Positions 7,793 to 56,427 of a DNA stretch of 64,000 bases are shown one piece after another. The stretch is from contig MFNO01000013.1 of the NCBI GenBank assembly GCA_001782075.1, forward strand, positions 48,608-112,607, written 5' to 3'. Both the position numbers and the translations under genes were made by a program. Origin of the DNA: Candidatus Levybacteria bacterium RIFCSPHIGHO2_01_FULL_38_26 (GTDB taxonomy: Bacteria > Patescibacteriota > Microgenomatia > Levybacterales > UBA12049). Each line of letters starts with the position of its first letter. Positions within the stretch are counted from its first letter, which is position 1. The notes under the pieces were generated by a model that did not search any database, was not told where the DNA came from, and saw nothing but the letters and a program-made list of their open reading frames with translations.

Positions 7793-8833
7793 ATGAAGAT
7801 AGCTATTGATATTTCTCCTTTGGAAAAATCAAGTCTCTTGGCGCACAGAGTACGGGGAACAGGATTTTACATCGATAATCTCAAAAAATCTTTATTAAAG
7901 TATTTTCCACAAAATAAGTATATATTTTTTACCCGAGGAGAAAATTTACCCAAAGATATAAATTTAGTACATTATACTTATTTCGAACCGTTTTTCTTAA
8001 GCCTTCCCGTTATAAAAGCCCAAAAAACAGTTGTAACAGTCCATGATTTAACGCCTCTGGTATTTAAAAAATTTTTCCCGGCTGGAATTAAAGGTAATTT
8101 TAAGTGGCAGATCCAAAAACTGGGATTAAAAACTGCGAATGCTGTTATTACCGATTCTGAATCATCTAAAAAAGACATTATAAAATATACTGGTTTGCCT
8201 TCATCAAGAGTTAATGTTGTCTATTTGGCAGCAGGAGAAGAATTCAAAAGAATCAAGAATATAAAAAACAAATATAATTTACCAGAAAAGTTTGTATTAT
8301 ACGTGGGAGATGTGACGTGGAACAAGAATTTACCAAGACTTATAGAGGCTGTAAAAAAAATTAACGTATCATTTGTAATGATTGGGTCAGCAATTATGCA
8401 AAAAAATTTCGATCGATCTAATCCATGGAATCAGGATTTATCGAAAATTTTAAAACTAACAGAAGATGACAAAAAAATTATAAAACTCGGTTTTGTGTCC
8501 CAGGAAGATTTGGTTGCGATATATAACCTTTCCACTGTTTTTGCCATGCCATCCCTTTACGAGGGTTTTGGTTTGCCTATTTTGGAAGCGATGAGCTGCG
8601 GTTGCCCGGTGGTTACGACTAAAGAGGGTTCTATACAAGAAATAGCAGGAGAGGCGGCGTATTACGTTAATGCTTATGATGTTGATGATATTGCCAATGG
8701 GATTGGTGAGTTGTTTTTTAGTCAAAAACTTCAACAGGAGCTTTCAGAAAAAGGATTGATACAGGCAAAAAAATTTTCATGGAAAAAAACAGCAGAAGAA
8801 ACAATCGGGGTTTATGAACAAGCAACATTGTAA
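7793..8833 (+). CDS. Family-4 glycosyltransferase (GT4)
   Basis: C-terminal EGFGLPILEAMSCGCPVV (EX7E-type motif). Confidence 0.85.
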   Translation: MKIAIDISPLEKSSLLAHRVRGTGFYIDNLKKSLLKYFPQNKYIFFTRGENLPKDINLVHYTYFEPFFLSLPVIKAQKTVVTVHDLTPLVFKKFFPAGIKGNFKWQIQKLGLKTANAVITDSESSKKDIIKYTGLPSSRVNVVYLAAGEEFKRIKNIKNKYNLPEKFVLYVGDVTWNKNLPRLIEAVKKINVSFVMIGSAIMQKNFDRSNPWNQDLSKILKLTEDDKKIIKLGFVSQEDLVAIYNLSTVFAMPSLYEGFGLPILEAMSCGCPVVTTKEGSIQEIAGEAAYYVNAYDVDDIANGIGELFFSQKLQQELSEKGLIQAKKFSWKKTAEETIGVYEQATL

Positions 8834-44018: not shown

Positions 44019-44777
44019 GTGGATAAAAATAAAATAGAATTGCATTCTCCAACTAAAATATTAAGAAAGTACACTTTTTTATTTGCAAAAGTTCTTCGCG
44101 ATTTGCGGATCTCTCCGGATGCATTAATAGCAGGAAGGTTGTTAATTTTTGGTTTGGGATCGGCTTATTTATTTTACATCGGGACCTATGTATCCAATAT
44201 GCTGGCCGTTTTATTTTTATTTACAAATTTTTTCCTTGGTTTGATTGGTGAAGATTTAGCTAGAAACTTCAATCTAAAAACTAAGTTGAGCGAATTTTTG
44301 GATGCAAATTCACACTATTTTATTAACAGTATAATTATTATCTCGATAACTATCTATATGTTTCAAGTAGAGCATCCGCTTAGATTTATAGGCCTTTTTG
44401 CTTTTTTTGGCCACTCTTTTTCTGTAAAAATATTTACATTTTTAAAATCAACGTTTCTGATATCGGTTATTTCAGAAAATGCCAAAATGGAAAAGTTTTT
44501 TTTGCAAAACAAACCGGATTTAATAAGTATGTTGCTAAAGGAGCTTATGATTCCAAAAAATTTTGTTTTTTTTCTTTTCTCAAGCATACGCTATCATCTG
44601 ATTCTTGGTGCTTTGTTGGGAATAATGCCAATTATGATTTTGTTGTATGCGATAATGATTAATTTTCAATGGTTAACTTTGGTTGTTGCGCTTATTTACT
44701 ACTATAAATTTTATAACACTGAAAAAAGAATTATCTTTTTTAAAGCGTTAAAAGCACTTGAAGTAAAGGATAAGTAA
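44019..44777 (+). CDS. CDP-alcohol phosphotransferase-family membrane protein, degenerate paralog
   Basis: About 6 TM. GEDLARNF...LSEFLDANSHYF aligns to the active-site motif of the downstream gene, but with G->S and the final D->H. Confidence 0.5.
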   Translation: MDKNKIELHSPTKILRKYTFLFAKVLRDLRISPDALIAGRLLIFGLGSAYLFYIGTYVSNMLAVLFLFTNFFLGLIGEDLARNFNLKTKLSEFLDANSHYFINSIIIISITIYMFQVEHPLRFIGLFAFFGHSFSVKIFTFLKSTFLISVISENAKMEKFFLQNKPDLISMLLKELMIPKNFVFFLFSSIRYHLILGALLGIMPIMILLYAIMINFQWLTLVVALIYYYKFYNTEKRIIFFKALKALEVKDK

Positions 44778-44784
44778 AAGTAGT

Positions 44785-45558
44785 ATGAAAAAAAACTCAA
44801 ATCAAGAAAGACGTCTAGATTTTATAGCCAAAACATTGAAAAATCTTTCTGTGAATGTTGCTAGATTTCTAAATGGAATAGGTGTTACGCCCAATATGAT
44901 TACATCATTAAGATTATTAATAGGTGCTGGATCTTCTTATTTATTTTTTCTTCAGGGATATGTAACGGATTTGCTTGCCATTTTCTTTTTAGGCTTATTT
45001 TTTTTTCTTGATTTGGTGGACGGAGACTTGGCGAGAAAATTCAAAAAAACTTCCAAGCTGGGAGAATTTATGGACAGTTTTATAGACGCTGTTATAATTA
45101 ATTTGGTTTTGCTTGCAATTTATGGAAACCTAAATGCTGCAGCTAATCCTTTTAGTTATATTCCTGTAATAGCCATCATGGGACAAGGGCTGTCTGTTCT
45201 CATATCTCAAAACTATGAAGCTAAATTTGGCATATCGGGCTTGTCTTTAAATCCTAAGATACAATCTTATCGTAAGAACAATGACGTTGATGCTATTAGC
45301 AAATTTCTTTTTGAACTTTTGACACCGACAAATATCTTAACTTCACTTTTTTCCACATTAAAATATTATCTGATTGTTGGCGCGTTATTTAATATAATTC
45401 CTCTTGCGATAACAGCTTATGCCCTTATGATTAATTTAAGATGGATAATGCTTTCTTTTACATTAGCTTTATACTATAAGTACAACCAGCTTGTAAACAA
45501 AATCAATTTTTTTTATATTCTAAAAGCCTTAGAGCGCAATCGTCCACTTGTTATATAA
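44785..45558 (+). CDS. CDP-alcohol phosphotransferase-family membrane protein (intact motif)
   Basis: DLVDGDLARKFKKTSKLGEFMDSFIDAV is D-G-x2-A-R-x8-G-x3-D-x3-D; about 6 TM. Confidence 0.7.
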   Translation: MKKNSNQERRLDFIAKTLKNLSVNVARFLNGIGVTPNMITSLRLLIGAGSSYLFFLQGYVTDLLAIFFLGLFFFLDLVDGDLARKFKKTSKLGEFMDSFIDAVIINLVLLAIYGNLNAAANPFSYIPVIAIMGQGLSVLISQNYEAKFGISGLSLNPKIQSYRKNNDVDAISKFLFELLTPTNILTSLFSTLKYYLIVGALFNIIPLAITAYALMINLRWIMLSFTLALYYKYNQLVNKINFFYILKALERNRPLVI

Positions 45559-45601: not shown

Positions 45602-47989
45602 ATGTTTGAATCGAAAAAACTACCTGAAGCCTTTATAAGCAAAGCAGATACTTTACAAATATTGTCCGGTGTATTGAAAAAATCTTTAGTAGAAGATTTG
45701 TATGTTCTCTTGGAATCGGATTGGAAAAAAAATAAAACTGAGGTTGTAAGAAATATTAAGAATAGATTTAGGGGTAGAAACATAGTAGTTAGAAGTTCTG
45801 CATTAAATGAAGACACTAATCATTATTCAAATGCCGGGACCTTCAAAAGCATATTAAATGTAAATAGTTTGCATGAAGTTTCTATAGTTTCTGCTGTTGA
45901 AAGCGTCATAGGTTCTTATAAAAAAAAGGGTGCAGGAGATTCTAATAATCGCGTACTTGTTCAAACACAAACTATAGATGTATTATCTAGTGGGATAGTA
46001 TTAACAAGAGACTATAATGATTCTCCATACTATGTAATAAATTATTCAGATGGAAAAGATACAACGACTGTTGCAAGGGGTCTCTACAGTAAGACTTTGA
46101 AAATCTTAAAATCAGACCATGTAAATATTCCACTACGCTATAAAACTATAGTTAACGCTGTACGAGAAATAGAGGAGCTTGTTCCTAATATTGCCCTCAA
46201 TATTGAATACGCGCTTAAAAGCAATGGTCAAGTAGTTGTATTTCAAGTTAGACCATTGATTGTAGCTGGGGAAGAGCATTTAGTTAGTGACGTGGATGTT
46301 TTTGATAAAGTCGAGAGGTTAAAAACAAGGTTTAGGAAATTGTCTCAACCAACTCCTCATTTAGCCGGAAAAGTTACATATTTTGGTGATATGCCCGACT
46401 GGAATCCGGCAGAAATAATTGGAAGCTCGCCGCGCCGCTTGGCCTTTTCGTTGTATGCAGAGATTATTACTGATGATATTTGGCATAGAGCTAGAACAAG
46501 CCAAGGATATACTGATGTAAATCCGGCTAACCTTGTTGTAACATTTGGGAACAAACCTTATGTAGATATTAGAAATTCGTTTAACTCATTTATACCGGTT
46601 GGTTTAAGTCAACCCCTTAGGGAAAAACTAATAAATTTCTACCTAGAAAAATTAAAAAGAAATCCTCAGTTTCAAGATAAAGTAGAATTCGAGATCGTTT
46701 ATACGTGTTACGATCTAGCTTTCAATAAACGCTCAAAAGAACTACTAAAGTTCAATTTTTCAAAAGAGGAGATAGACCAAATAAGAACAGCATTGTTGCA
46801 TTTGACCAACAACCTTTTGAGTGCAGAGTCTATCCGTGCCGACCTAGGTCAAAATGAGGAGCTAGAAAAGTATAGAGAAGCTTTTCCTGCAGTAAAAAAA
46901 CAAGCGTCTCCTCAGGAAAGAGTAGAGAGGGCATTGAATTTGTTAGCAATGTGCAAGAAAATGGGAACCCTTCAATTTTCAAGATTGGCAAGACTGGCAT
47001 TTATTGGAAAAATACTGCTTAGAAGCTTGATAGACGAAGGCGCATTAGATTATATGAATTATTACAGATTTCTGGAATCAATTAACACAGTTACATCTAG
47101 TTTCTCAGCAGACATGGAAAAATTGAACAATGGAAATCTAAAAAAAACAGACTTTTTAAATAAATATGGCCATTTGCGGCCGGGAACGTATGACATAAGA
47201 GTTCCTCGGTATGATGCGCATGATTATTTTTCGTTAATAAAAGCTTCAAATAGCGAAGGTGAATTGGGCAAAAAAAAATTTATACTGGATACTGAAGGTT
47301 ATAGGAAAATATCATTTCTATTAAAAAAGCACGGGTTTAGAATAGATGCTAATGAGCTATTTCAGCTTACAAGATTTGCTTTAGAAGCAAGAGAATATTC
47401 AAAGTTTTTATTTACAAAGCCGCTGAGCGATGCTATGGAGCACATTGCCATTGCAGCAGAGGACTTAGGGTTTTTGCGAGAAGATATATCACATTTAGAT
47501 CTTGAGGCAATTAAGATGGCTAAAGATAAAGACGCGACATCTATTAAGGCGCAATGGGGTAAAAGGATCAATAAAAATAGAAAAGACTTTGTATCAAATA
47601 GCTGTATATCTTTGCCTCCTGTAATTTTTTCTGCAGAAGATTTCGATGTTATTTCTTATTATGATTCCCAGCCTAACTATGTGACAAATAAGAAAATTCA
47701 AGGCGATATAGTACTTTTGGACGGACAAGCAGACAAAAAAATTTCTGGGAAAGTAGTGCTTTTGGAAGCTGCAGATCCAGGTTATGATTGGATTTTTGCA
47801 AAGAAGCCGGCGGCTTTGATTACAAAATACGGAGGGACAGCATCTCATATGGTAGTGAGGTGCGCGGAGTTAGGGTTGCCGGCAGCAATTGGCCTGGGAG
47901 ATCATTTATACGAATTGTTATTGAATGCAAATTCTATTATGATTGATTGCGAAAATCAAAAAATTGAATTGAAAGGTATGGTTAGTTAA
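45602..47989 (+). CDS. PEP-synthase/PPDK-like ATP-grasp + phospho-His swivel-domain kinase (candidate L-glutamine kinase, Cj1418-like)
   Basis: 795 aa. C-terminal PEP-utilising mobile domain YGGTASHMVVRCAELGLPAAIGLG, with the His about 58 residues from the C-terminus. There is no PEP-binding TIM-barrel domain. Confidence 0.7.
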   Translation: MFESKKLPEAFISKADTLQILSGVLKKSLVEDLYVLLESDWKKNKTEVVRNIKNRFRGRNIVVRSSALNEDTNHYSNAGTFKSILNVNSLHEVSIVSAVESVIGSYKKKGAGDSNNRVLVQTQTIDVLSSGIVLTRDYNDSPYYVINYSDGKDTTTVARGLYSKTLKILKSDHVNIPLRYKTIVNAVREIEELVPNIALNIEYALKSNGQVVVFQVRPLIVAGEEHLVSDVDVFDKVERLKTRFRKLSQPTPHLAGKVTYFGDMPDWNPAEIIGSSPRRLAFSLYAEIITDDIWHRARTSQGYTDVNPANLVVTFGNKPYVDIRNSFNSFIPVGLSQPLREKLINFYLEKLKRNPQFQDKVEFEIVYTCYDLAFNKRSKELLKFNFSKEEIDQIRTALLHLTNNLLSAESIRADLGQNEELEKYREAFPAVKKQASPQERVERALNLLAMCKKMGTLQFSRLARLAFIGKILLRSLIDEGALDYMNYYRFLESINTVTSSFSADMEKLNNGNLKKTDFLNKYGHLRPGTYDIRVPRYDAHDYFSLIKASNSEGELGKKKFILDTEGYRKISFLLKKHGFRIDANELFQLTRFALEAREYSKFLFTKPLSDAMEHIAIAAEDLGFLREDISHLDLEAIKMAKDKDATSIKAQWGKRINKNRKDFVSNSCISLPPVIFSAEDFDVISYYDSQPNYVTNKKIQGDIVLLDGQADKKISGKVVLLEAADPGYDWIFAKKPAALITKYGGTASHMVVRCAELGLPAAIGLGDHLYELLLNANSIMIDCENQKIELKGMVS

Positions 47990-47990
47990 G

Positions 47991-48692
47991 ATGCTGGTTG
48001 CGATATCGCAAAGAAATTTATATTTAAAAAAATACGGATCAGTAGATATGCTGGAAACAGCATATGTAAGATTATTTAGTGGTTTTGGCATCGATCTAGT
48101 TCAGATGCCCAACATTGGTAAGGATATAAAAAGATATATACAACAAATTTCTGTTGAAGGAATAATATTAAGCGGTGGAGGTGACGTTGATCCTTCACTT
48201 TATGGAGGAGATTCTACTAATCCAGGTGATTACTCTTTAGACAGGGATGAGACTGAAAAGTCATTGCTTGAAACTGCGCTTGTAAAAGACATACCGGTTT
48301 TAGGTATTTGCAGAGGAATGCAAGTAATTAATGTTTATTTTAATGGCAAATTACTGCAGGATATGAAAGCAGAAATAAATAATAAAATAGATCATGTAGG
48401 CAAGAAACATAAAGTGACAGTATCAATGGAATCAATAGTGGATGCATTAGGGACAAATACTGTAGAAGTGAATTCTTACCATAATCAAGGTATTGCCAAA
48501 GCTCAGCTGTCTGAAGATTTGGTTTCTTTTGCAAATGCTCAGGATCAAACAATTGAGGCTGTATATCATCCAGGGCGTTCAATTGCCGCTGTTATGTGGC
48601 ATCCTGAACGATCTAATCCTCCTACTTTTTTGGACAAGCTATTGATTAAATCATTTGTTGTCAGGGAGGCATTTTGGAGAAAGCGAAAGTGA
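47991..48692 (+). CDS. Class-I glutamine amidotransferase / peptidase-C26 gamma-glutamyl hydrolase (Cj1417-like)
   Basis: GICRGMQVIN (nucleophile Cys) and MWHPER (catalytic His/Glu). Confidence 0.8.
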   Translation: MLVAISQRNLYLKKYGSVDMLETAYVRLFSGFGIDLVQMPNIGKDIKRYIQQISVEGIILSGGGDVDPSLYGGDSTNPGDYSLDRDETEKSLLETALVKDIPVLGICRGMQVINVYFNGKLLQDMKAEINNKIDHVGKKHKVTVSMESIVDALGTNTVEVNSYHNQGIAKAQLSEDLVSFANAQDQTIEAVYHPGRSIAAVMWHPERSNPPTFLDKLLIKSFVVREAFWRKRK

Positions 48693-49474
48693 GAGCTATC
48701 ATTTTAGCAGCAGGGGAAGGTAAAAGATTAAGACCATACACAGAAGATCTTCCTAAAGGGATGTTGAAATTTGATGGCAAAGCATTAATTGAAAGACAAA
48801 TAAGCCTTTTTCAAGATAATGGTATCTATGATATTTGTATAGTTACAGGTCATCTGGCGGACAGAATTAAATATTCTAACATACGCTACTTTCATAACCC
48901 CAATTATGAGCAAACAAATATGGTAGAATCCCTCTTTTGTGCAAGGACGGTGTTGTTTGGAGAAATAGTAATATCTTACGCGGATATTGTTTTTGAAAAG
49001 AGAGTTTTGCGTCGTGTATTAGAAAGCAAAGCAGACGTAGGAGTAACGGTTGATACGTCTTGGAAGGAGTATTGGCTAATGCGGCATGAGGATGCAAATA
49101 TAGACATAGAAAGCTTAAAACTGCATAAAAAGGGAGGAATAATAGAGATAGGAAAACTTGAGAAATCAGCAGAAAACATAGATGGAAGATATGTAGGTTT
49201 ATTAAAATTTTCACCACGAGGGATTAAAAAACTAGTATCGGTTTATGACAAAGCTAAATCTATTTTTTGGAATAAATCTTGGCAAACCTCCGGCAGCTTC
49301 CAGAAGGCGTACATGACAGATTTGCTGCAGGCTTTAATAGATGACGGTCAGGAAATTAATGCGATAAAAATTCAGCACGGCTGGTTAGAGGTTGATACGG
49401 CAAGAGATTATGAGCAGGTGATCAGGCTTAAGAGAGAAAATATGTTAAAGAAATTTTTCAATCCTGAGGCTTAA
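48674..49474 (+). CDS. LicC-like sugar/phospho-headgroup cytidylyltransferase (Cj1416-like nucleotidyltransferase)
   Basis: AIILAAGEGKRLRPYT...PKGML, with a LicC/CTP-transferase-like length of 266 aa. Confidence 0.7.
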   Translation: MEKAKVRAIILAAGEGKRLRPYTEDLPKGMLKFDGKALIERQISLFQDNGIYDICIVTGHLADRIKYSNIRYFHNPNYEQTNMVESLFCARTVLFGEIVISYADIVFEKRVLRRVLESKADVGVTVDTSWKEYWLMRHEDANIDIESLKLHKKGGIIEIGKLEKSAENIDGRYVGLLKFSPRGIKKLVSVYDKAKSIFWNKSWQTSGSFQKAYMTDLLQALIDDGQEINAIKIQHGWLEVDTARDYEQVIRLKRENMLKKFFNPEA

Positions 49475-49495: not shown

Positions 49496-50035
49496 ATGGT
49501 TACTATAGTTTTTGAGTCACATGCAACAAGCTTTGATAATGAAAATCATGTTGTTTCAGGCTGGAATGATGTGGAATTATCTCCATTGGGCGTGCAGCAG
49601 GCAAAAGATTTAGGAAAGCGAAGGGAAAATGAAAAGTTTGTTGCAATCTTCTGTTCGGATCTTCAGCGATCTTATAAAACGGCCATAATAGCTTTTGGAA
49701 ACAAATCTCCAATTATTCAAGATTTTAGATTGAGAGAGTGTGATTATGGTGATTTAACGCAACGACCCAGTAGTTTAATAGATAATGAAAAACTTAATCG
49801 GATAACAAACCCTTTTCCCAATGGAGAAAGCTATACGCAAGCATCTGAAAGAATAAAGGAGTTTTTAGAAGATTTGATAAAAAACCATGAAGGTAAGAAA
49901 GTGATGATTATCGGACACAAGGCAACGCAATATGGATTAGAGCATTGGATAAAAAAAGAGTCCCTGGAAAAGGTTATTGCAGCTCATTGGAAATGGCAGC
50001 CCGGGTGGACTTATGAGCTTAGAGCTTTTCGCTGA
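49496..50035 (+). CDS. Histidine-phosphatase-superfamily (PGM-like) protein with an atypical catalytic motif
   Basis: FESHATS...GW replaces the canonical RHGE(T/S): the catalytic His is kept and the Arg becomes Ser. A second His lies in IIGHKAT. Confidence 0.6.
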   Translation: MVTIVFESHATSFDNENHVVSGWNDVELSPLGVQQAKDLGKRRENEKFVAIFCSDLQRSYKTAIIAFGNKSPIIQDFRLRECDYGDLTQRPSSLIDNEKLNRITNPFPNGESYTQASERIKEFLEDLIKNHEGKKVMIIGHKATQYGLEHWIKKESLEKVIAAHWKWQPGWTYELRAFR

Positions 50036-50036
50036 T

Positions 50037-50753
50037 ATGCAGCATGCATCGGTAGTAAAATTATTTAAAGAACAAATAGGTCATTATTCAAGCAGAGATC
50101 AGGCTGTTGATTCTAAAATTGTCTCACTTTTTAAAGGTTGGGTAAGAAAAGATAAAGTTAATAAACACTTAGAAATTTGTGAGTTTGGTGGTGGAGCAGG
50201 ACAATTACTTAGTCAACTTAGGGAAAATTACCACAATGCAAGCTTCACTAATGCAGAAATAGTAGAAGATTATAAAAAAAAACTAGTATCGGATAAGATA
50301 AAATTTGTCAAAACTTCAATTATTAAATCTGTGTTTACAGATAAATCATTTGACGTTTTGATTGCTAGGGATGTATTCCATCACTTAATTGGAAAAAGTT
50401 ATGATGAAACGGTCAAAAATCAAATAACTGCGCTTAATGAATTGAAACGCCTGCTTCGTCCTGGTGGAGTAATTTTCATTGAGGAGCTTACGATGATTGC
50501 AGAAATAACTTCGCGTGCTATTTATACTCTTTCAAGCTTTAACGCAAGATTGGGATTACGTTTACCGTTTATTAATATAAGCACAAATACAGTTGTTGCT
50601 TTTTTAACAAAAGATAAGCTGATAAGATTTTGTAAGCAGGTTTTTGTAAAAGAAAAAATTTACATAACGAAGATTAATATCAAGAATGATTTCAAGTCAA
50701 GGATTCTACGCCTGGGAAATAAGGCAGATAAAATAATAGTAACTATTCAATAG
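50037..50753 (+). CDS. Class I SAM-dependent methyltransferase
   Basis: ICEFGGGAGQLL, then RLLRPGGVIFIEE. The start was placed at MQHAS, just after the upstream stop; the track ORF starts at 49977. Confidence 0.65.
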   Translation: MQHASVVKLFKEQIGHYSSRDQAVDSKIVSLFKGWVRKDKVNKHLEICEFGGGAGQLLSQLRENYHNASFTNAEIVEDYKKKLVSDKIKFVKTSIIKSVFTDKSFDVLIARDVFHHLIGKSYDETVKNQITALNELKRLLRPGGVIFIEELTMIAEITSRAIYTLSSFNARLGLRLPFINISTNTVVAFLTKDKLIRFCKQVFVKEKIYITKINIKNDFKSRILRLGNKADKIIVTIQ

Positions 50754-52062
50754 GCAATAGCTTCTTGTCATAGTATTTTTTAGTTGCTGCAGGAAGTTTT
50801 GTTAAAGTGAATGCTATCAGGCATACAGCCAAGACAATATTTGCAAATAGAGAAACATTTACTATGTCTGACAAATTACTGTGGAAATAAAATATGCCAA
50901 CAACTTGCAAAATTGCAACAAGTAGCGATACATATCCGGGAGTAAATTCGTCCATTGCAATAAAGCCGCTTACGATAATATATGAGATTGTATAAAGTAG
51001 GATAGACATGCCGTAAGCAGGTATAAGAGGAATGATTTCCAGATAAGAACTAGAGAGCGCAATAACAACTATTTGTTTTGGAATTAGGAGATATATTACA
51101 AAAACCGATAAAACCAAAACGAATGCACCTGAGACAGCAATTTTGAATAGTTTTACACCCACAATATTGCTTTTGGCATTTATGACAAGAGGAAGAAAAA
51201 CAGTATTTAAAGGAAAAGTAGTAAGTATCATTCCTTTACCTAAAATCGCTAATCCTGCATACAATCCGGCTTGTTGGGCAAGATAGTATTGGGTTAATAT
51301 AAGATCTGCTGAGATTATAGATGTTAATCCTAAAAATCCGATCATTGTTGAAAAAGATTCTTTTGTAAAAGTTTTTGCGTTAAAGTTAATTTTTTCAGAT
51401 AGATTAAAAAATAATCGGCCTCGAAGCTGCCATATTGAATAAGCAAGCGCTAGTATACTAGATATAATAAGAGACCAAATTACCCCATTTAGCATAAACC
51501 CCAAAATTAACAGAGGGATAGAGAGGATTAATTTAGTAGCTTGTTGAAAAACTGAATTAAGCGCAAACGCCATAAAAAGCAAATTAGCTTTCATGAATGA
51601 CTTATGAATGGTTATAGACAATCCTAATATGCTTAACAGGATTATAATCGCTAAATTTTCAGAACTAACCGAACCAATCGCGATATGAATGCTATTGCTG
51701 ATCAGGAGAAAGGATACAAGTATTGCTATGCCCACAATAATCACAAAAAAGTTACTTTTATTGACAAGAGCTGAAGCAGAGGAATATTTCTTTTTTGAGA
51801 TATACCTTGCAAATTGTTTTATGAGTTGAATTGTGATTAAAATAGTCAAGACATTTATCATATTGAAGATATTGATCATTGTTTGTAGAATACCGTAATG
51901 TTCAATGCTTAGGTTGTGGGCAGCAGCAAGATTAAATAAGAAATTGAGAACATTAGATAATATTGAAGACGCAAAAATAATTATTGAACTGGAAAACAAG
52001 CCAAAATGGATGGGATGAGAGTTTTTAAATTTGGCTAGATGAGATATTATGAGGCGTTTCAT
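50743..52062 (-). CDS. Wzx-like flippase (MOP superfamily), paralog of 9432..10700
   Basis: SNVLNFLFNLAAAHNLSIEHYGILQTM mirrors the N-terminal motif of the other flippase. Confidence 0.7.
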   Translation of the reverse strand: MKRLIISHLAKFKNSHPIHFGLFSSSIIIFASSILSNVLNFLFNLAAAHNLSIEHYGILQTMINIFNMINVLTILITIQLIKQFARYISKKKYSSASALVNKSNFFVIIVGIAILVSFLLISNSIHIAIGSVSSENLAIIILLSILGLSITIHKSFMKANLLFMAFALNSVFQQATKLILSIPLLILGFMLNGVIWSLIISSILALAYSIWQLRGRLFFNLSEKINFNAKTFTKESFSTMIGFLGLTSIISADLILTQYYLAQQAGLYAGLAILGKGMILTTFPLNTVFLPLVINAKSNIVGVKLFKIAVSGAFVLVLSVFVIYLLIPKQIVVIALSSSYLEIIPLIPAYGMSILLYTISYIIVSGFIAMDEFTPGYVSLLVAILQVVGIFYFHSNLSDIVNVSLFANIVLAVCLIAFTLTKLPAATKKYYDKKLLPIE

Positions 52063-52116: not shown

Positions 52117-53811
52117 ATGCGAAAGTCTTTTCTTTCTATAATACTTTTTTTAATAATACTTTTAGCTTATTGGGATCTACCAAAAACTTTTTTTCAGCAA
52201 GATGAATGGCAAAGCTTAGCGGCCGCTATTTATTACCAAAGTATAAGTTTTTCCGGAATAGTGCAATCTTTTTTGCCTTCAGATGCTATTTCTCATTTTA
52301 ACCCCTTGGCAAAAATATATGAATGGTTTACGTTCTTATTTTTTTATACTAATTTTGAGTTTTATGCCTGGTTGAGTATTGGTGTGCACGCAATAAATAC
52401 ATTTCTACTTTACTATTTCGTTTTATTGACATTTCAGAACAGAAAACTTGCATTTTTTGCCGCTATTTTATTTGGTGTAAACAGTATAGCAAGCCAGGCG
52501 GTAACCTGGGTCGCCGCTATAAACAGCTATGAAATCCCTACAGTTTTTATACTCCTATCGTTAATATTTTTCCATCGTTTTCTTAGACAAAAAGAACATC
52601 GGAATAGAAATGTGCTGTTTTCTTTTTCTTTGCTTTTTATTTCACTTTTGTTTCACGAAATTGGCATTTTTCTCCTCATTTTCTATCCCTTAATATTCTT
52701 TTTATACACCAAGTCCGAATGGAGAAAATTATTCCCTGCTCTTCTTTACAGCTTGCTGCTTTTCATTTTTGCCTTTTTTCTTATTAGAGTTCCTTTTTTC
52801 TTTGGATTTACAACTACTCTTCCGGTAGTAACAGATATTTCTCGTCCTTCTGTAACAGTTTATCCTTACCGGTTGGTTTCTATAGCAATGAAGTCCTTTG
52901 CAGGGAGTCTGATTCCCGAGAGAACTCTTATTGAAATTTCGCAAAGTGTTGTCTATCTTGGCTATCCTCAATATTTAACGGCAGATAATCTTCCAAATCC
53001 TTTTATTACTCAATCAATTGTCTTTGATTTAACCTCTTACATGTTTACCGTAATTATTGTCTGTATAATAATTTTTTGCATAAAACTGACTCGAGATAAG
53101 AAACTTAAAGACGCGCTTTTTTGGGCACTGCTTTTTGTCCCAGCCAGTTTAATTCCGTATGGTTTTGTCTTGGGAAAAGCAGGATACGCGTCTATACTTG
53201 AACCTAAATTTTTTTATGTCGGTAGTATTGGAATAAGCATACTTGTTGCAGCTGCTGCATATTCTTTGCTTATTAAATTTTCAAAACAAAAGATACTAAA
53301 AACTATTGTTTATCTTTTGCTGGGATTATATTTTGTACACCATCTTATGGCAGTAAAAACTAATTCAAATAATTTAGTGGAAATAGGAACACAGAGAAAA
53401 GAATTTCTTACAAATATTAAATCTTCTTATAAAAAACTTCCACAAAATGCTGTATTTTTTACCCAAAGCGATACTGCTTATTACGGTATGCCAGATGATG
53501 AAAGAATTCTGCCCGTGCAGATCGGTTTTGGCAAGATGCTTATGATATGGTATCAAAAAGACGAGCGATTTCCGGGATGTTTGTATGAAGGACAATTTTT
53601 ATTGCCGTTATTGGAAGAAGGTTATCGAAGCTGTGGTGGTCGCGGCTTTGGGTATTTTAGAAATTATGATAAACTTATAGACACAATTAAAACGAACAAT
53701 ATTAAGGTAGAAAGTGTGATTGCTTATTCATGGAATGGAAAAAGTGAAAAACTTGAAGACATCACGAGTGAAATACGGACAAGAATAAAAATAGATCTTG
53801 AAAATAAATAA
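52117..53811 (+). CDS. GT-C membrane glycosyltransferase (ArnT/PMT-like)
   Basis: WDLPKTFFQQDEWQSLA (DE motif) and a C-terminal soluble domain YYGMPDDERILP...GYRSCGGRGFGYFR. Confidence 0.65.
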   Translation: MRKSFLSIILFLIILLAYWDLPKTFFQQDEWQSLAAAIYYQSISFSGIVQSFLPSDAISHFNPLAKIYEWFTFLFFYTNFEFYAWLSIGVHAINTFLLYYFVLLTFQNRKLAFFAAILFGVNSIASQAVTWVAAINSYEIPTVFILLSLIFFHRFLRQKEHRNRNVLFSFSLLFISLLFHEIGIFLLIFYPLIFFLYTKSEWRKLFPALLYSLLLFIFAFFLIRVPFFFGFTTTLPVVTDISRPSVTVYPYRLVSIAMKSFAGSLIPERTLIEISQSVVYLGYPQYLTADNLPNPFITQSIVFDLTSYMFTVIIVCIIIFCIKLTRDKKLKDALFWALLFVPASLIPYGFVLGKAGYASILEPKFFYVGSIGISILVAAAAYSLLIKFSKQKILKTIVYLLLGLYFVHHLMAVKTNSNNLVEIGTQRKEFLTNIKSSYKKLPQNAVFFTQSDTAYYGMPDDERILPVQIGFGKMLMIWYQKDERFPGCLYEGQFLLPLLEEGYRSCGGRGFGYFRNYDKLIDTIKTNNIKVESVIAYSWNGKSEKLEDITSEIRTRIKIDLENK

Positions 53812-54745
53812 CATGAAATTATCTCACAAAAAAATAGTTGTAACCGGTGGTGGTGGGTTTTTAGGAAAATATGTTGTTCAGAGATTAAAGAAAGAAGGCG
53901 CTTCTGACATTTTTTCTCCCCTATCGAAAGAATATGACCTCAGAAATAGGGAAGTTTGTAGGAAAATAGTGAAAAATGCGGATATAGTTATCCACTTAGC
54001 TGCGCAAATAGGCGGAATAGGTTTTATAGGAGAGCACATGGGTGAGGTATTTTATAACAATATAGTTATGGGGGTTGAGCTTATGGAAGCGTCACGACTT
54101 GCAGGCGTTGAGAAATTTGTGAGTGTTGGTACTGTTTGCGAATATCCTAAAAGTCCGCCAGTCCCTTTTCGAGAAGAAGATTTGTGGGAAGGATATCCTG
54201 AAGAAACTACTTCTTCCTACGGTTGGGCTAAAAAAGTGCTTATCGTTCAAGGGAAAGCGTATAAAAAACAATACAATTTTAATGCCATACATCTGCTTCC
54301 TGTTAATTTATATGGTCCACATGATAATTTTGATAGAACATCAAGTCACGTTATTCCAGCTCTTGTTAAGAGAGTTATTGAGGCAAAAGAAAAAAAGAAA
54401 CCTTATGTTAAGATTTGGGGAACAGGAACTGCTACGCGAGAGTTTCTGTATGTCCAGGATGCAGCCGAGGGAATAGTCTTGGCAACAAAAAAGTATGATT
54501 CTACTGAGCCAGTTAATTTGGGAACAGGTGTTGAGACTTTTATCAAAGATCTTGTCAAAATTATTGCCGAACTTACAGGGTATCATGGAGAAATAAAATG
54601 GGACGCTACAAAGCCAGATGGCCAGCCGAGAAGGAGACTTGATGTATCAAAAGCAAAAAAAGAATTTGGTTTTTCAGCAAAAACCTCCCTCAAAAAGGGA
54701 CTTAGAGCTACAATTGAATGGTATCAACGGTATAGAACTATATGA
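53798..54745 (+). CDS. fcl: GDP-L-fucose synthase (GDP-4-keto-6-deoxymannose 3,5-epimerase/4-reductase)
   Basis: VVTGGGGFLGKY, LAAQIGGIG and NLYGPHDNFDRTSSHVIPALV are GMER signature regions. Confidence 0.8.
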   Translation: MKINNMKLSHKKIVVTGGGGFLGKYVVQRLKKEGASDIFSPLSKEYDLRNREVCRKIVKNADIVIHLAAQIGGIGFIGEHMGEVFYNNIVMGVELMEASRLAGVEKFVSVGTVCEYPKSPPVPFREEDLWEGYPEETTSSYGWAKKVLIVQGKAYKKQYNFNAIHLLPVNLYGPHDNFDRTSSHVIPALVKRVIEAKEKKKPYVKIWGTGTATREFLYVQDAAEGIVLATKKYDSTEPVNLGTGVETFIKDLVKIIAELTGYHGEIKWDATKPDGQPRRRLDVSKAKKEFGFSAKTSLKKGLRATIEWYQRYRTI

Positions 54746-56427
54746 TTTTTTTTCTAGTTGTTGCTTATGTAGCTCTCGGGTTTTTGGCATTTGGAAAGCT
54801 TCCGTTTACATTTTTCCAACAGGATGAGTGGGCTATTTTTGGAAATTATATCTATTGGGAAAAAGCCAGTCTCGGCTGGTGGGAAAGACTGTTTATTTAC
54901 GAACAAGATACTCATATTATTCCGTTCTCGAATCTCTTTTCTTTTTTGCAATTTAAGGCTTTTGGATTGAATTTTTTTTATTACGGAATTTCAAGTATTC
55001 TTCTTCATATTATTAATGCAATTCTTGTATATGTACTTTCGACTATTATAACCAACAAAAAAAGCGTTGGATATATCGCGGGTGCTGTATTTTTGATTAG
55101 CTCAGTAACACATCAAGCAGTCACATGGGTTGCTACAAGTCCCGGAACGTTAGGCGCGACATTCTTTACAATTCTTTCCCTTATTTTTTTCTTTAAATTC
55201 ATGCAGTCAAATACCAAAAAAGTCAGTGGTTTATTACTAGTACTTCTTCTTTTGATTGCTTCTTTGTTTTTCAAAGAAACTAGTGTTTTTTTATTTGGTT
55301 TGATACCGGTATTGTGGTTAATCCTGGGTGGAGCAAGGAAAGAGAAGCATCCTAAAGCCCTTTTTTTTGTATTTTGTTTCTTCGTGACTTTTTATATACT
55401 TTTTAGACTCTTTATTTTGTTTTTTGGATATGAGTCTACTTCAGACCCCCAATATATTTCGCAGCCGACTGATATAGCTGCTTATGCCTTTAGAATTCCG
55501 ACAGTACCACTGAAGTTTATCGCACAAAGTATAATTCCCCAATCAACGTTAATATCAATAGGAAACACTCTAGTAGAGATTGCCTATCCTCAATTTGCGC
55601 AGCAAGGCGCACCAGATCCATATATCTCTCAAACCATTGCTGTTGATATAATCTCTTATTTATCTTCAATCATATTTTTGATGTTTTTCTTTGTAGTTTA
55701 CAGGTTCCATAAACGACTTAAGAAAGAAAAACTGGCAAAAGCGATCTTGGTATCTTTTGTAGGAATAGTTTTGAGTTCTCTTCCATTTGTTCTTATTCCT
55801 GGCAAGGCGGGTTATTTTTCACTGATTGACGGAAGACATCTTTATCTTTCTAATGTGTTTTTATCTATCGCTCTTTCTACTGTTTTATATGGTTTGTATA
55901 GGTGGATTCCAAAGCGACAGATAACAATTCCAGTGTTTATTCTTATTCTTATGGCAATAGTAATATTTAATATTCGTTTAATAAGAAGAGATTTAAATGT
56001 GCAAGTCGGCAATGGAATAATTCGTACATCCATACTGCATACAATCTCCAATACATACCCCACGTTGTCCTCGCGTGTAGTTTTTTACACACAGGCAGAC
56101 AAGTCCTATTATGGTTTACCAGAGGAAGAAAAAATTCTTCCATTCCAATCTGGGTTTGGTCAGACGCTTTTGGTTTGGTATAATAGCAAAGGAGAGAATT
56201 TCCCCTCATGTTTTTTTAAGGAAAAATATTTGTATGTATTACTTGAGGAGGGATATAGAGAGTGTGAGGGGAGGGGTTTTGGGTATTTTAGGAAAATGAA
56301 TTCATTAAAAAAAGCAGTGATTGAATACGGAATACCGGTTGAAAGTATTGTTGCTTTTTCCTACGATTCGTCTTCAAATAAACTTACCGATATATCTGAT
56401 CGCGTACGCAGTTTGATAACAAAATGA
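54742..56427 (+). CDS. GT-C membrane glycosyltransferase, paralog of 52117..53811
   Basis: FGKLPFTFFQQDEWAIF and a C-terminal domain YYGLPEEEKILP...GYRECEGRGFGYFR colinear with the paralog. Confidence 0.65.
   Translation: MIFFLVVAYVALGFLAFGKLPFTFFQQDEWAIFGNYIYWEKASLGWWERLFIYEQDTHIIPFSNLFSFLQFKAFGLNFFYYGISSILLHIINAILVYVLSTIITNKKSVGYIAGAVFLISSVTHQAVTWVATSPGTLGATFFTILSLIFFFKFMQSNTKKVSGLLLVLLLLIASLFFKETSVFLFGLIPVLWLILGGARKEKHPKALFFVFCFFVTFYILFRLFILFFGYESTSDPQYISQPTDIAAYAFRIPTVPLKFIAQSIIPQSTLISIGNTLVEIAYPQFAQQGAPDPYISQTIAVDIISYLSSIIFLMFFFVVYRFHKRLKKEKLAKAILVSFVGIVLSSLPFVLIPGKAGYFSLIDGRHLYLSNVFLSIALSTVLYGLYRWIPKRQITIPVFILILMAIVIFNIRLIRRDLNVQVGNGIIRTSILHTISNTYPTLSSRVVFYTQADKSYYGLPEEEKILPFQSGFGQTLLVWYNSKGENFPSCFFKEKYLYVLLEEGYRECEGRGFGYFRKMNSLKKAVIEYGIPVESIVAFSYDSSSNKLTDISDRVRSLITK

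Follow-up and report, generated by a model that had tools for sequence, protein, structure and literature searches.

What does a histidine phosphatase without its motif arginine do directly behind the genes of a glutamine-kinase cassette? The question is raised by a 64,000-nucleotide stretch of a Candidatus Levybacteria contig (MFNO01000013.1; the window in what follows), in which an open reading frame (ORF) at 49496-50035 comes after homologues of the Campylobacter jejuni enzymes Cj1418, Cj1417 and Cj1416. In C. jejuni, Cj1415-Cj1418 jointly produce cytidine diphosphate (CDP)-phosphoramidate 3'-phosphate (PMC11800397), and transfer requires Cj1421 and Cj1422 (PMC11800397; PMC6429109). The original prediction described the ORF product as a histidine-phosphatase-fold protein with Ser at the catalytic-motif Arg, standing where a Cj1415-type kinase would be expected. 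Our analysis upholds the description of the protein and speaks against the substitution for the kinase. The ORF encodes a real histidine-phosphatase-fold protein of branch 1, an uncharacterised Arg-less variant of a known superfamily, and from its sequence and gene context we give roughly even chances that it is an active general phosphatase co-opted as an accessory enzyme of the local glutamine-kinase/nucleoside diphosphate (NDP)-amidate operon, here called type A.

Fold and active site of the Arg-less phosphatase

An identical protein, OGH14342.1, is annotated as 'hypothetical protein A2687_01800' in a Candidatus Levybacteria metagenome-assembled genome (MAG), and the locus is also present in several metagenomes on contigs of up to 317 kb. 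The start codon is right, because the N-terminus MVTIVFESHATSFDNE agrees with the N-termini of relatives. The ORF and its active-site segments are:

49496..50035, + strand: Arg-less branch-1 histidine phosphatase ORF, 179 residues, ATG start (OGH14342.1 / A2687_01800)
49514..49543, + strand: motif E7-S8-H9-A10-T11-S12-F13-D14-N15-E16 in place of RHGE(T/S)xxN, Asn15 retained
49655..49672, + strand: S54-D-L-Q-R58-S59, with the second phosphate-pocket Arg kept; R58 invariant in the family
49727..49750, + strand: R78-L-R-E81-C-D-Y-G85, with Glu81 as the general acid/base equivalent; E81 invariant in the family
49910..49930, + strand: I139-G-H141-K142-A-T-Q145, with the second catalytic His and a family-specific basic residue

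Pfam, profile alignment to PDB sequences, and an AlphaFold2 model searched with Foldseek agree on the PGM/PhoE-like histidine-phosphatase fold that had been proposed. The protein matches Pfam His_Phos_1 (PF00300) with an E value of 4.5e-30 (105.2 bits, cut-off 21.7), and the AlphaFold2 model (mean predicted local distance difference test score 95.2, predicted template-modelling (TM) score 0.90) retrieves PhoE, PspA, 9mmh and dPGM with TM scores of 0.73-0.88 and E values of about 1e-15. With PhoE/YhfR (1h2e/1ebb), PspA/iPSP1 (4ij5) and the Aquifex aeolicus histidine family phosphatase (HFP; 9mmh), all of which have TM scores of 0.80-0.88 and identities of 23-30%, the protein shares a compact branch-1 fold of roughly 180-210 residues. 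The best structural match is 9mmh, a riboflavin-pathway enzyme at 30% identity. dPGM and SixA belong to the same superfamily and the same phospho-histidine chemistry is expected, while the window phosphatase is about 50-70 residues shorter than dPGM and lacks the dPGM-type C-terminal tail.

Four residues are conserved in all histidine family phosphatases, corresponding to R8, H9, R58 and H149 of 9mmh, and N15 and E82 are further catalytic residues of that enzyme (PMC12051542). In the window protein the set R8/H9/N15/R58/E82/H149 reads S8/H9/N15/R58/E81/H141. The family profile aligns 'FESH' onto the 'VRH'/'IRH' of 4ij5 and 9mmh, which places His9 at the site of the nucleophilic His and Ser8 at that of the RHG Arg. 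The reported replacement in ESHATSFDN is thus real, the nucleophile is retained at a structurally equivalent position, and the objection that the protein might be a non-enzymatic fold does not hold. The second His, noted earlier within IIGHKAT, is His141, and apart from the RHG Arg (here Ser8) nothing is missing from the catalytic set, with the second Arg (R58), second His (H141) and acid/base Glu (E81) all present. Unlike PhoE, PspA and HFP, the family to which the protein belongs has a small residue for the RHG Arg, a Glu (Glu7) directly before it and a basic residue after the second His.

The window phosphatase scores below every NCBIfam equivalog cut-off, including those for CobC, PspA, GpmB and dPGM. 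The CobC alpha-ribazole phosphatase model (TIGR03162) gives 74.8 against a cut-off of 162.9, the PspA phosphoserine phosphatase model (NF045917) 62.9 against 350, the dPGM model (TIGR01258) 46 (cut-off 81.7), and the remaining PGM equivalogs 34-50 (cut-offs 225-421). The same NCBIfam scan found no SixA model at E <= 0.01, and the ORF contains no Walker A motif. Neither a phage or defence origin (PADLOC returned no match, PHROGs only a generic family without an assigned function) nor a viral one (a single match at 30% identity in a scan of viral contigs) was retained for the window phosphatase.

A protein search with the window phosphatase returned 2357 relatives, and the 119 nearest other clusters among the matches listed are 65-74% identical to it and 174-190 residues long. 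An exhaustive profile search collected 167 clusters (50% identity) at E <= 1e-30 and 3531 at E <= 1e-10; the profile of the Arg-less family (A1) scores the window protein at 339 bits, and the protein has both the family motif and a length of about 175-180 residues. Position 8 was tallied in 120 database relatives and 81 genome-encoded copies. Among these about 200 relatives, at 60-74% identity, it is Ser, Ala, Thr, Pro, Gly or Leu (plus Val) and never Arg or Lys, with Glu7 and His9 almost invariant and Asn15, Arg58, Glu81 and His141 invariant, a pattern well beyond what chance would give. Ser-for-Arg is therefore shared and, across the sequences compared, is the signature of a large family and no quirk of the window. 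Directly behind the second His, 112/120 and 78/81 members of the two sets have Arg, and the window protein has Lys (K142). Conservation reaches 90% or more in 82 of about 178 columns, and the window protein departs from the consensus at 3 of them (family mean 2.0, maximum 6); since this is within the normal range, the window copy is under the same constraint as its relatives.

A wider Arg-less clade (motif [FY]-[VA]-H-G-T-T-x-D-N-E) is 40-56% identical to the window protein. In some of its members the domain is inserted into valyl-tRNA synthetase (ValRS; P0377, P0380, P0385, P0388, P0398) directly after the SRQxWWGHRIPxWY motif, or into the N-terminal part of FtsY (P0407), and in others (P0368, P0402, P0362, P0369) it is fused to dCTP-deaminase-like, HD/YfbR-like, alpha/beta-hydrolase and DUF2007 domains. 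H9, N15, R58, E81 and H141 are kept in all fused or inserted copies, which argues for an active enzyme. The fusions to dCTP-deaminase-like and HD/YfbR-like 5'-deoxynucleotidase domains hint weakly at a nucleotide substrate.

Arg-less relatives occur in at least 326 species genomes, mostly of Patescibacteria; the others are MAGs labelled Thaumarchaeota, Bathyarchaeia and Blastocatellia. Identity among Patescibacteria, acidobacterial and archaeal copies is about 66-71% (L174, L003, L080), a level that suggests recent transfer of the family between phyla. In the Blastocatellia genome (L174, contig_4703, 2.9 Mb; copy at 8001-8540) the stretch downstream of the phosphatase gene holds a transposase and a serine recombinase at distances of 0.75-3.6 kb, and with a primase-like gene all three fall within 0.75-5 kb.

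Glutamine-kinase cassettes of types A and B

In the window the phosphatase gene follows three cassette genes and precedes a methyltransferase gene. By profile matches these three neighbours are glutamine-kinase, C26-hydrolase and nucleotidyltransferase homologues.

44019-44777 and 44785-45558, + strand: a pair of paralogous membrane proteins of the CDP-alcohol phosphatidyltransferase family, immediately before the glutamine-kinase gene
45602..47989, + strand: glutamine kinase (Cj1418/PRK05849) homologue, 795 residues, 847.7 bits (cut-off 501)
47991..48692, + strand: Peptidase_C26/GATase hydrolase; best NCBIfam model NF045546 (gamma-glutamyl-CDP-amidate hydrolase, Cj1417 type), 104 against a cut-off of 250
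48674..49474 (start at 48689 according to gene callers), + strand: nucleotidyltransferase at the Cj1416 position, matching generic NTP_transferase models only
50013..50753, + strand: class I S-adenosylmethionine-dependent methyltransferase, start as called in the identical contigs L081-L083

The phosphatase gene begins 21 nucleotides after the nucleotidyltransferase stop and overlaps the methyltransferase start by 23 nucleotides as called in L081-L083 (in L084/L085 the methyltransferase is called as a longer TTG ORF from 49977). No terminator-like site was found on the + strand between 42313 and 53000. By this arrangement the phosphatase gene is embedded in a predicted cassette operon. Consensus scans for a promoter or terminator of its own did no better than shuffles, and recent acquisition as judged by composition was dismissed, as GC content and GC content at third codon positions match those of the neighbours. 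The best matches of the CDP-alcohol transferase paralogues are inositol-phosphate-type synthases, and these proteins could be transferases that use the CDP-linked donor directly and release CMP; homologues occur in 17/84 glutamine-kinase loci.

The glutamine kinases nearest to that of the window (61-66% identity) sit in type A blocks at L087, L088, L178 and L179. The order in these blocks is glutamine kinase, C26 hydrolase, nucleotidyltransferase, an opposite-strand pair encoding an HDIG-type HD protein (211-215 residues) and a dTMP-kinase-like P-loop protein (167-173 residues), and the Arg-less phosphatase. The pair, which the window lacks, lies at:

L087 5682-6833, strand opposite the cassette: HDIG + dTMP-kinase-like pair
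L088 10656-11819, strand opposite the cassette: HDIG + dTMP-kinase-like pair
L178 4605-5749, strand opposite the cassette: HDIG + dTMP-kinase-like pair
L179 4860-6041, strand opposite the cassette: HDIG + dTMP-kinase-like pair

The phosphatase gene is complete in L087 and cut by the contig end in L088 and L178; in L179, where the dTMP-kinase-like gene is present, the contig ends 77 nucleotides short of showing it or not. It thus adjoins the cassette in 4/4 judgeable type A loci (window, L087, L088, L178). The outer flanks of the blocks differ, and the block itself therefore appears to be the conserved unit. The type A dTMP-kinase-like protein may be the functional counterpart of Cj1415 where it occurs. 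At L088 riboflavin genes of the ribE, ribH, ribA and ribD types (243-2944) lie about 9 kb upstream of the phosphatase, an arrangement seen at none of the other loci.

A second cassette type, B, belongs to the next glutamine-kinase clade (50-59% identity). Its five-gene operon encodes the glutamine kinase, the C26 hydrolase, a P-loop NMP-kinase-like protein, a 188-residue His_Phos_1 protein and a protein of 408-424 residues without a Pfam or NCBIfam match. It lies at:

L176 10001-15582: type B operon
L177 10001-15535: type B operon
L148 3-4672: type B operon
L091 1076-5016: type B operon

The P-loop protein (AAA_17/18, PRK08356 and the kinase-like part of an anti-phage dCTP deaminase model) fills the place of the nucleotidyltransferase. 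The type B phosphatase (L176 13724-14290; P0241-P0360) resembles that of the window in having a non-canonical phosphate pocket, whereas the two proteins are only 27% identical and depart from the canon in different ways: type B keeps the RH motif (RHSKT) and has Lys at Arg58, while the window protein has Ser8 and keeps Arg58. The type B family is small (142 proteins) and appears cassette-dedicated, unlike the large and mostly unlinked family of the window protein. At least ten type B phosphatases agree with a glutamine-kinase homologue in the length of their longest contig, which suggests that the two share contigs and is confirmed for three (L089, L176 and L177; in L089 the type B-type phosphatase is about 6 kb off). 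The type B operon appears to be undescribed. Since a histidine-phosphatase step thus recurs in Patescibacteria glutamine-kinase modules, it becomes more probable that the window enzyme serves its operon.

Possible roles of the window phosphatase

On the co-option reading, the window ORF would supply a catalytically competent branch-1 histidine phosphatase from a large, strongly conserved and horizontally spreading Patescibacteria family. Catalysis would pass through phospho-His9, Glu81 would serve as acid/base, and K142 (R in most relatives) may partly make up for the lost RHG Arg by aiding phosphate binding; in fructose-2,6-bisphosphatase, the residue after the second His contacts phosphate. 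The substrate of the family as a whole would be general and cassette-independent, perhaps a small phosphorylated metabolite such as a nucleotide, for which there is a weak hint. In the window lineage the enzyme would have been co-opted as accessory phosphatase of the type A module, co-transcribed with the cassette, and would probably dephosphorylate some product or by-product. It might act on a 3'-phosphonucleotide, or on the phosphorylated compound made by the adjoining CDP-alcohol-transferase-type enzymes; what inositol-phosphate-type synthases make has to be processed by a phosphatase afterwards. The protein would neither replace nor mimic the Cj1415 kinase. Conserved adjacency in type A, along with the distinct histidine phosphatase that forms part of the type B operon, makes a functional tie to the cassette plausible.

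A good deal weighs against such a tie and would suit a general-purpose or accessory phosphatase that happens to sit in a dense same-strand array and has no part in the glutamine-kinase pathway, an explanation we regard as a serious rival, though less probable than co-option. The neighbourhoods of the best 80 genome loci were surveyed up to 10 kb on each side, and phmmer searches with the window glutamine kinase, C26 hydrolase, nucleotidyltransferase, methyltransferase and CDP-alcohol transferases found no cassette gene in any of the 80; nor is there a cassette within 8-10 kb of the relatives at 70-72% identity in L171-L174. Neighbour clustering over the 80 loci gave no conserved partner gene, and linkage of the whole family to the cassette was accordingly dismissed. 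The commonest neighbours are rpsG, rpsL, fusA and rpoC (about 9 loci), and GIY-YIG genes adjoin the phosphatase in 4 loci; together with the transposase and recombinase noted above, these settings depict a mobile family of highly variable context. The linked copies (window, P0007) form no clade apart from the unlinked ones: P0007 is 83% identical to the unlinked P0005 and P0010 and 74% to the window protein, which itself is not specially divergent. As linked and unlinked copies are intermixed, the linkage in four contigs, which belong to one cassette lineage, could be inherited synteny. In L087, L088 and L178, moreover, two opposite-strand genes set the phosphatase off from the cassette, and co-transcription is therefore not conserved there. 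A 3'-phosphonucleotide by-product may not arise in the window at all, as no kinase is encoded in it, and some of the relatives inserted into ValRS and FtsY have Gln at position 142, credited above with phosphate binding. Around glutamine kinases the density of His_Phos genes was about 8 per 1.07 Mb, compared with 1-3 per 1.2 Mb, but this was not counted as a significant enrichment, given only three independent lineages and crude motif/phmmer scans. A literature search found no description of the Arg-less family. The original prediction had itself named ubiquitous, unlinked homologues as a point against a cassette role; this is largely what the survey found, but the type A adjacency stands. It is this adjacency, kept in all judgeable type A loci despite differing outer flanks, together with the separate histidine phosphatase at the same gene position of the sister type B cassette and the tight gap and overlap of the gene inside its operon, that a bystander would leave unexplained.

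The remaining explanations give the protein a more unusual chemistry, or none. That it takes the place of Cj1415, as a phosphotransferase making the 3'-phosphorylated donor or as the mark of a kinase-free route, is very improbable. The gene does come directly after the Cj1416-position gene, histidine phosphatases can work as mutases or phosphotransferases (dPGM), and the reported lack of a P-loop kinase was confirmed: neither a Walker-A scan nor APS-kinase queries found one, and the 64-kb window has no APS-kinase-like, dTMP-kinase-like or AAA_17/18-like ORF. The six-frame scan gave two matches, both judged spurious from sequence context alone: a Rossmann-type ORF (GGSGFL) contains the first, and the second falls in a 564-residue ORF without a Pfam match. 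The APS-kinase domains of P0185 and P0196 matched no window ORF. With Cj1415, the APS-kinase-like enzyme of the C. jejuni O-methyl phosphoramidate (MeOPN) pathway, the phosphatase shares only the relative gene position after Cj1418-, Cj1417- and Cj1416-type genes; its fold is unrelated and it has no Walker A motif. The proposed occupation of the kinase position fails on L087, L088 and L178, where the same phosphatase adjoins a dTMP-kinase-like gene (L179 has the kinase-like gene too); because the two co-occur in relatives, the phosphatase does not appear to replace the kinase, and replacement was dismissed. The type B phosphatase likewise comes after a P-loop NMP-kinase-like gene, the Arg-less family is mainly cassette-independent, and a 179-residue protein lacks the dPGM-type tail. 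An APS-kinase-like gene is present in 18/84 glutamine-kinase loci and absent from about 16 of roughly 27 with near-full 10-kb flanks, so a missing kinase is common, and many such loci have no phosphatase either. Mutual exclusion of APS-kinase and CDP-alcohol-transferase genes, which would have been a sign of a kinase-free route, was not seen; the two co-occur in several loci. The reduced charge of the pocket, with one Arg lost in the window protein and Arg58 replaced by Lys in type B, might alternatively fit phosphoramidate-type substrates, a suggestion we hold to be unlikely; no less doubtful is its extension to N-phosphoglutamine, free phosphoramidate and CDP-amidate as substrates, with the enzyme hydrolysing strays or using phosphoramidate as phosphodonor to His9. 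SixA and PGAM5 of this superfamily cleave phosphorus-nitrogen (P-N) bonds, and each of the two glutamine-kinase cassette types has a non-canonical His_Phos_1 lineage attached to it, unrelated to the other; against this, most occurrences of the Arg-less family lack the cassette, and the ValRS- and FtsY-inserted copies are Arg-less as well without a P-N context. There is a slim chance that phosphatases with such de-charged pockets are genuine catalysts of the Patescibacteria glutamine-kinase pathway acting on P-N compounds (N-phosphoglutamine, phosphoramidate, NDP-amidate). Were this true, they would serve as proofreading hydrolases or phosphoramidate-primed phosphotransferases, and the Arg-less enzyme of the window and the Lys58 enzyme of type B would be two independent recruitments to one step. 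Just as improbable as the kinase substitute is a pseudo-enzyme, its site inactivated by the loss of the Arg and the protein serving as a binding or regulatory module. The missing residue does belong to the four conserved in all histidine family phosphatases (PMC12051542), but His9, Asn15, Arg58, Glu81 and His141 are kept across free-standing and fused members, and the proportion of columns conserved at 90% or more is typical of a selected active site.

Other glutamine-kinase loci and the surroundings of the cassette

In L142, L155 and L157 a His_Phos_1 gene of a third type is found upstream of the kinase, two genes away. The setting there is defence-like, comprising the His_Phos_1 gene, a 1039-residue SIR2_2 + nSTAND1 + FGE-sulfatase protein, a NUDIX protein and the glutamine kinase; the vicinity in L089 holds SIR2_2, NYN, an NB-ARC/TPR protein and a resolvase. 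Glutamine-kinase modules may have roles beyond glycan decoration.

L155 5796-12379: defence-like glutamine-kinase surroundings
L142 2202-9004: defence-like glutamine-kinase surroundings
L157 2211-8905: defence-like glutamine-kinase surroundings
L089 1-19531: defence-like glutamine-kinase surroundings

In DPANN archaea (Woesearchaeota, Nanoarchaeota; P0149-P0240, e.g. P0185 and P0196) the glutamine kinase shares its chain with a cytidylyltransferase domain (PF01467), and a few of these fusions add an N-terminal APS-kinase domain (PF01583), combining three pathway steps in one polypeptide. A literature search found no description of Patescibacteria or DPANN glutamine-kinase cassettes.

The cassette of the window belongs to a cluster, about 25 kb long, in which glycosyltransferases and epimerases are abundant. 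Within the cluster, three large ORFs without Pfam matches flank the cassette. Judging by their sequences, all three may be polytopic membrane proteins, and the two with about 560 residues resemble paralogues. They may represent the flippase and glycan-acceptor machinery for the modification.

50743-52062, - strand: large ORF without a Pfam match
52117-53811, + strand: large ORF without a Pfam match
54742-56427, + strand: large ORF without a Pfam match

Taken across these loci, the phosphoramidate-type pathways of Patescibacteria and DPANN are modular: a nucleotidyltransferase or a P-loop enzyme occupies the same place, an APS-kinase gene is present or absent, CDP-alcohol-transferase-type genes recur nearby, and a histidine phosphatase is an integral gene of one cassette type and a neighbour of another. 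The gene sets are concrete candidates for the late pathway steps outside Campylobacter. The RHG Arg is counted as one of four universal histidine-phosphatase residues, yet the Arg-less family does without it. An explanation of how it does so would change the view of which residues the superfamily minimally needs for catalysis, and would show what a hypothetical protein that is very common in ultra-small bacteria does.

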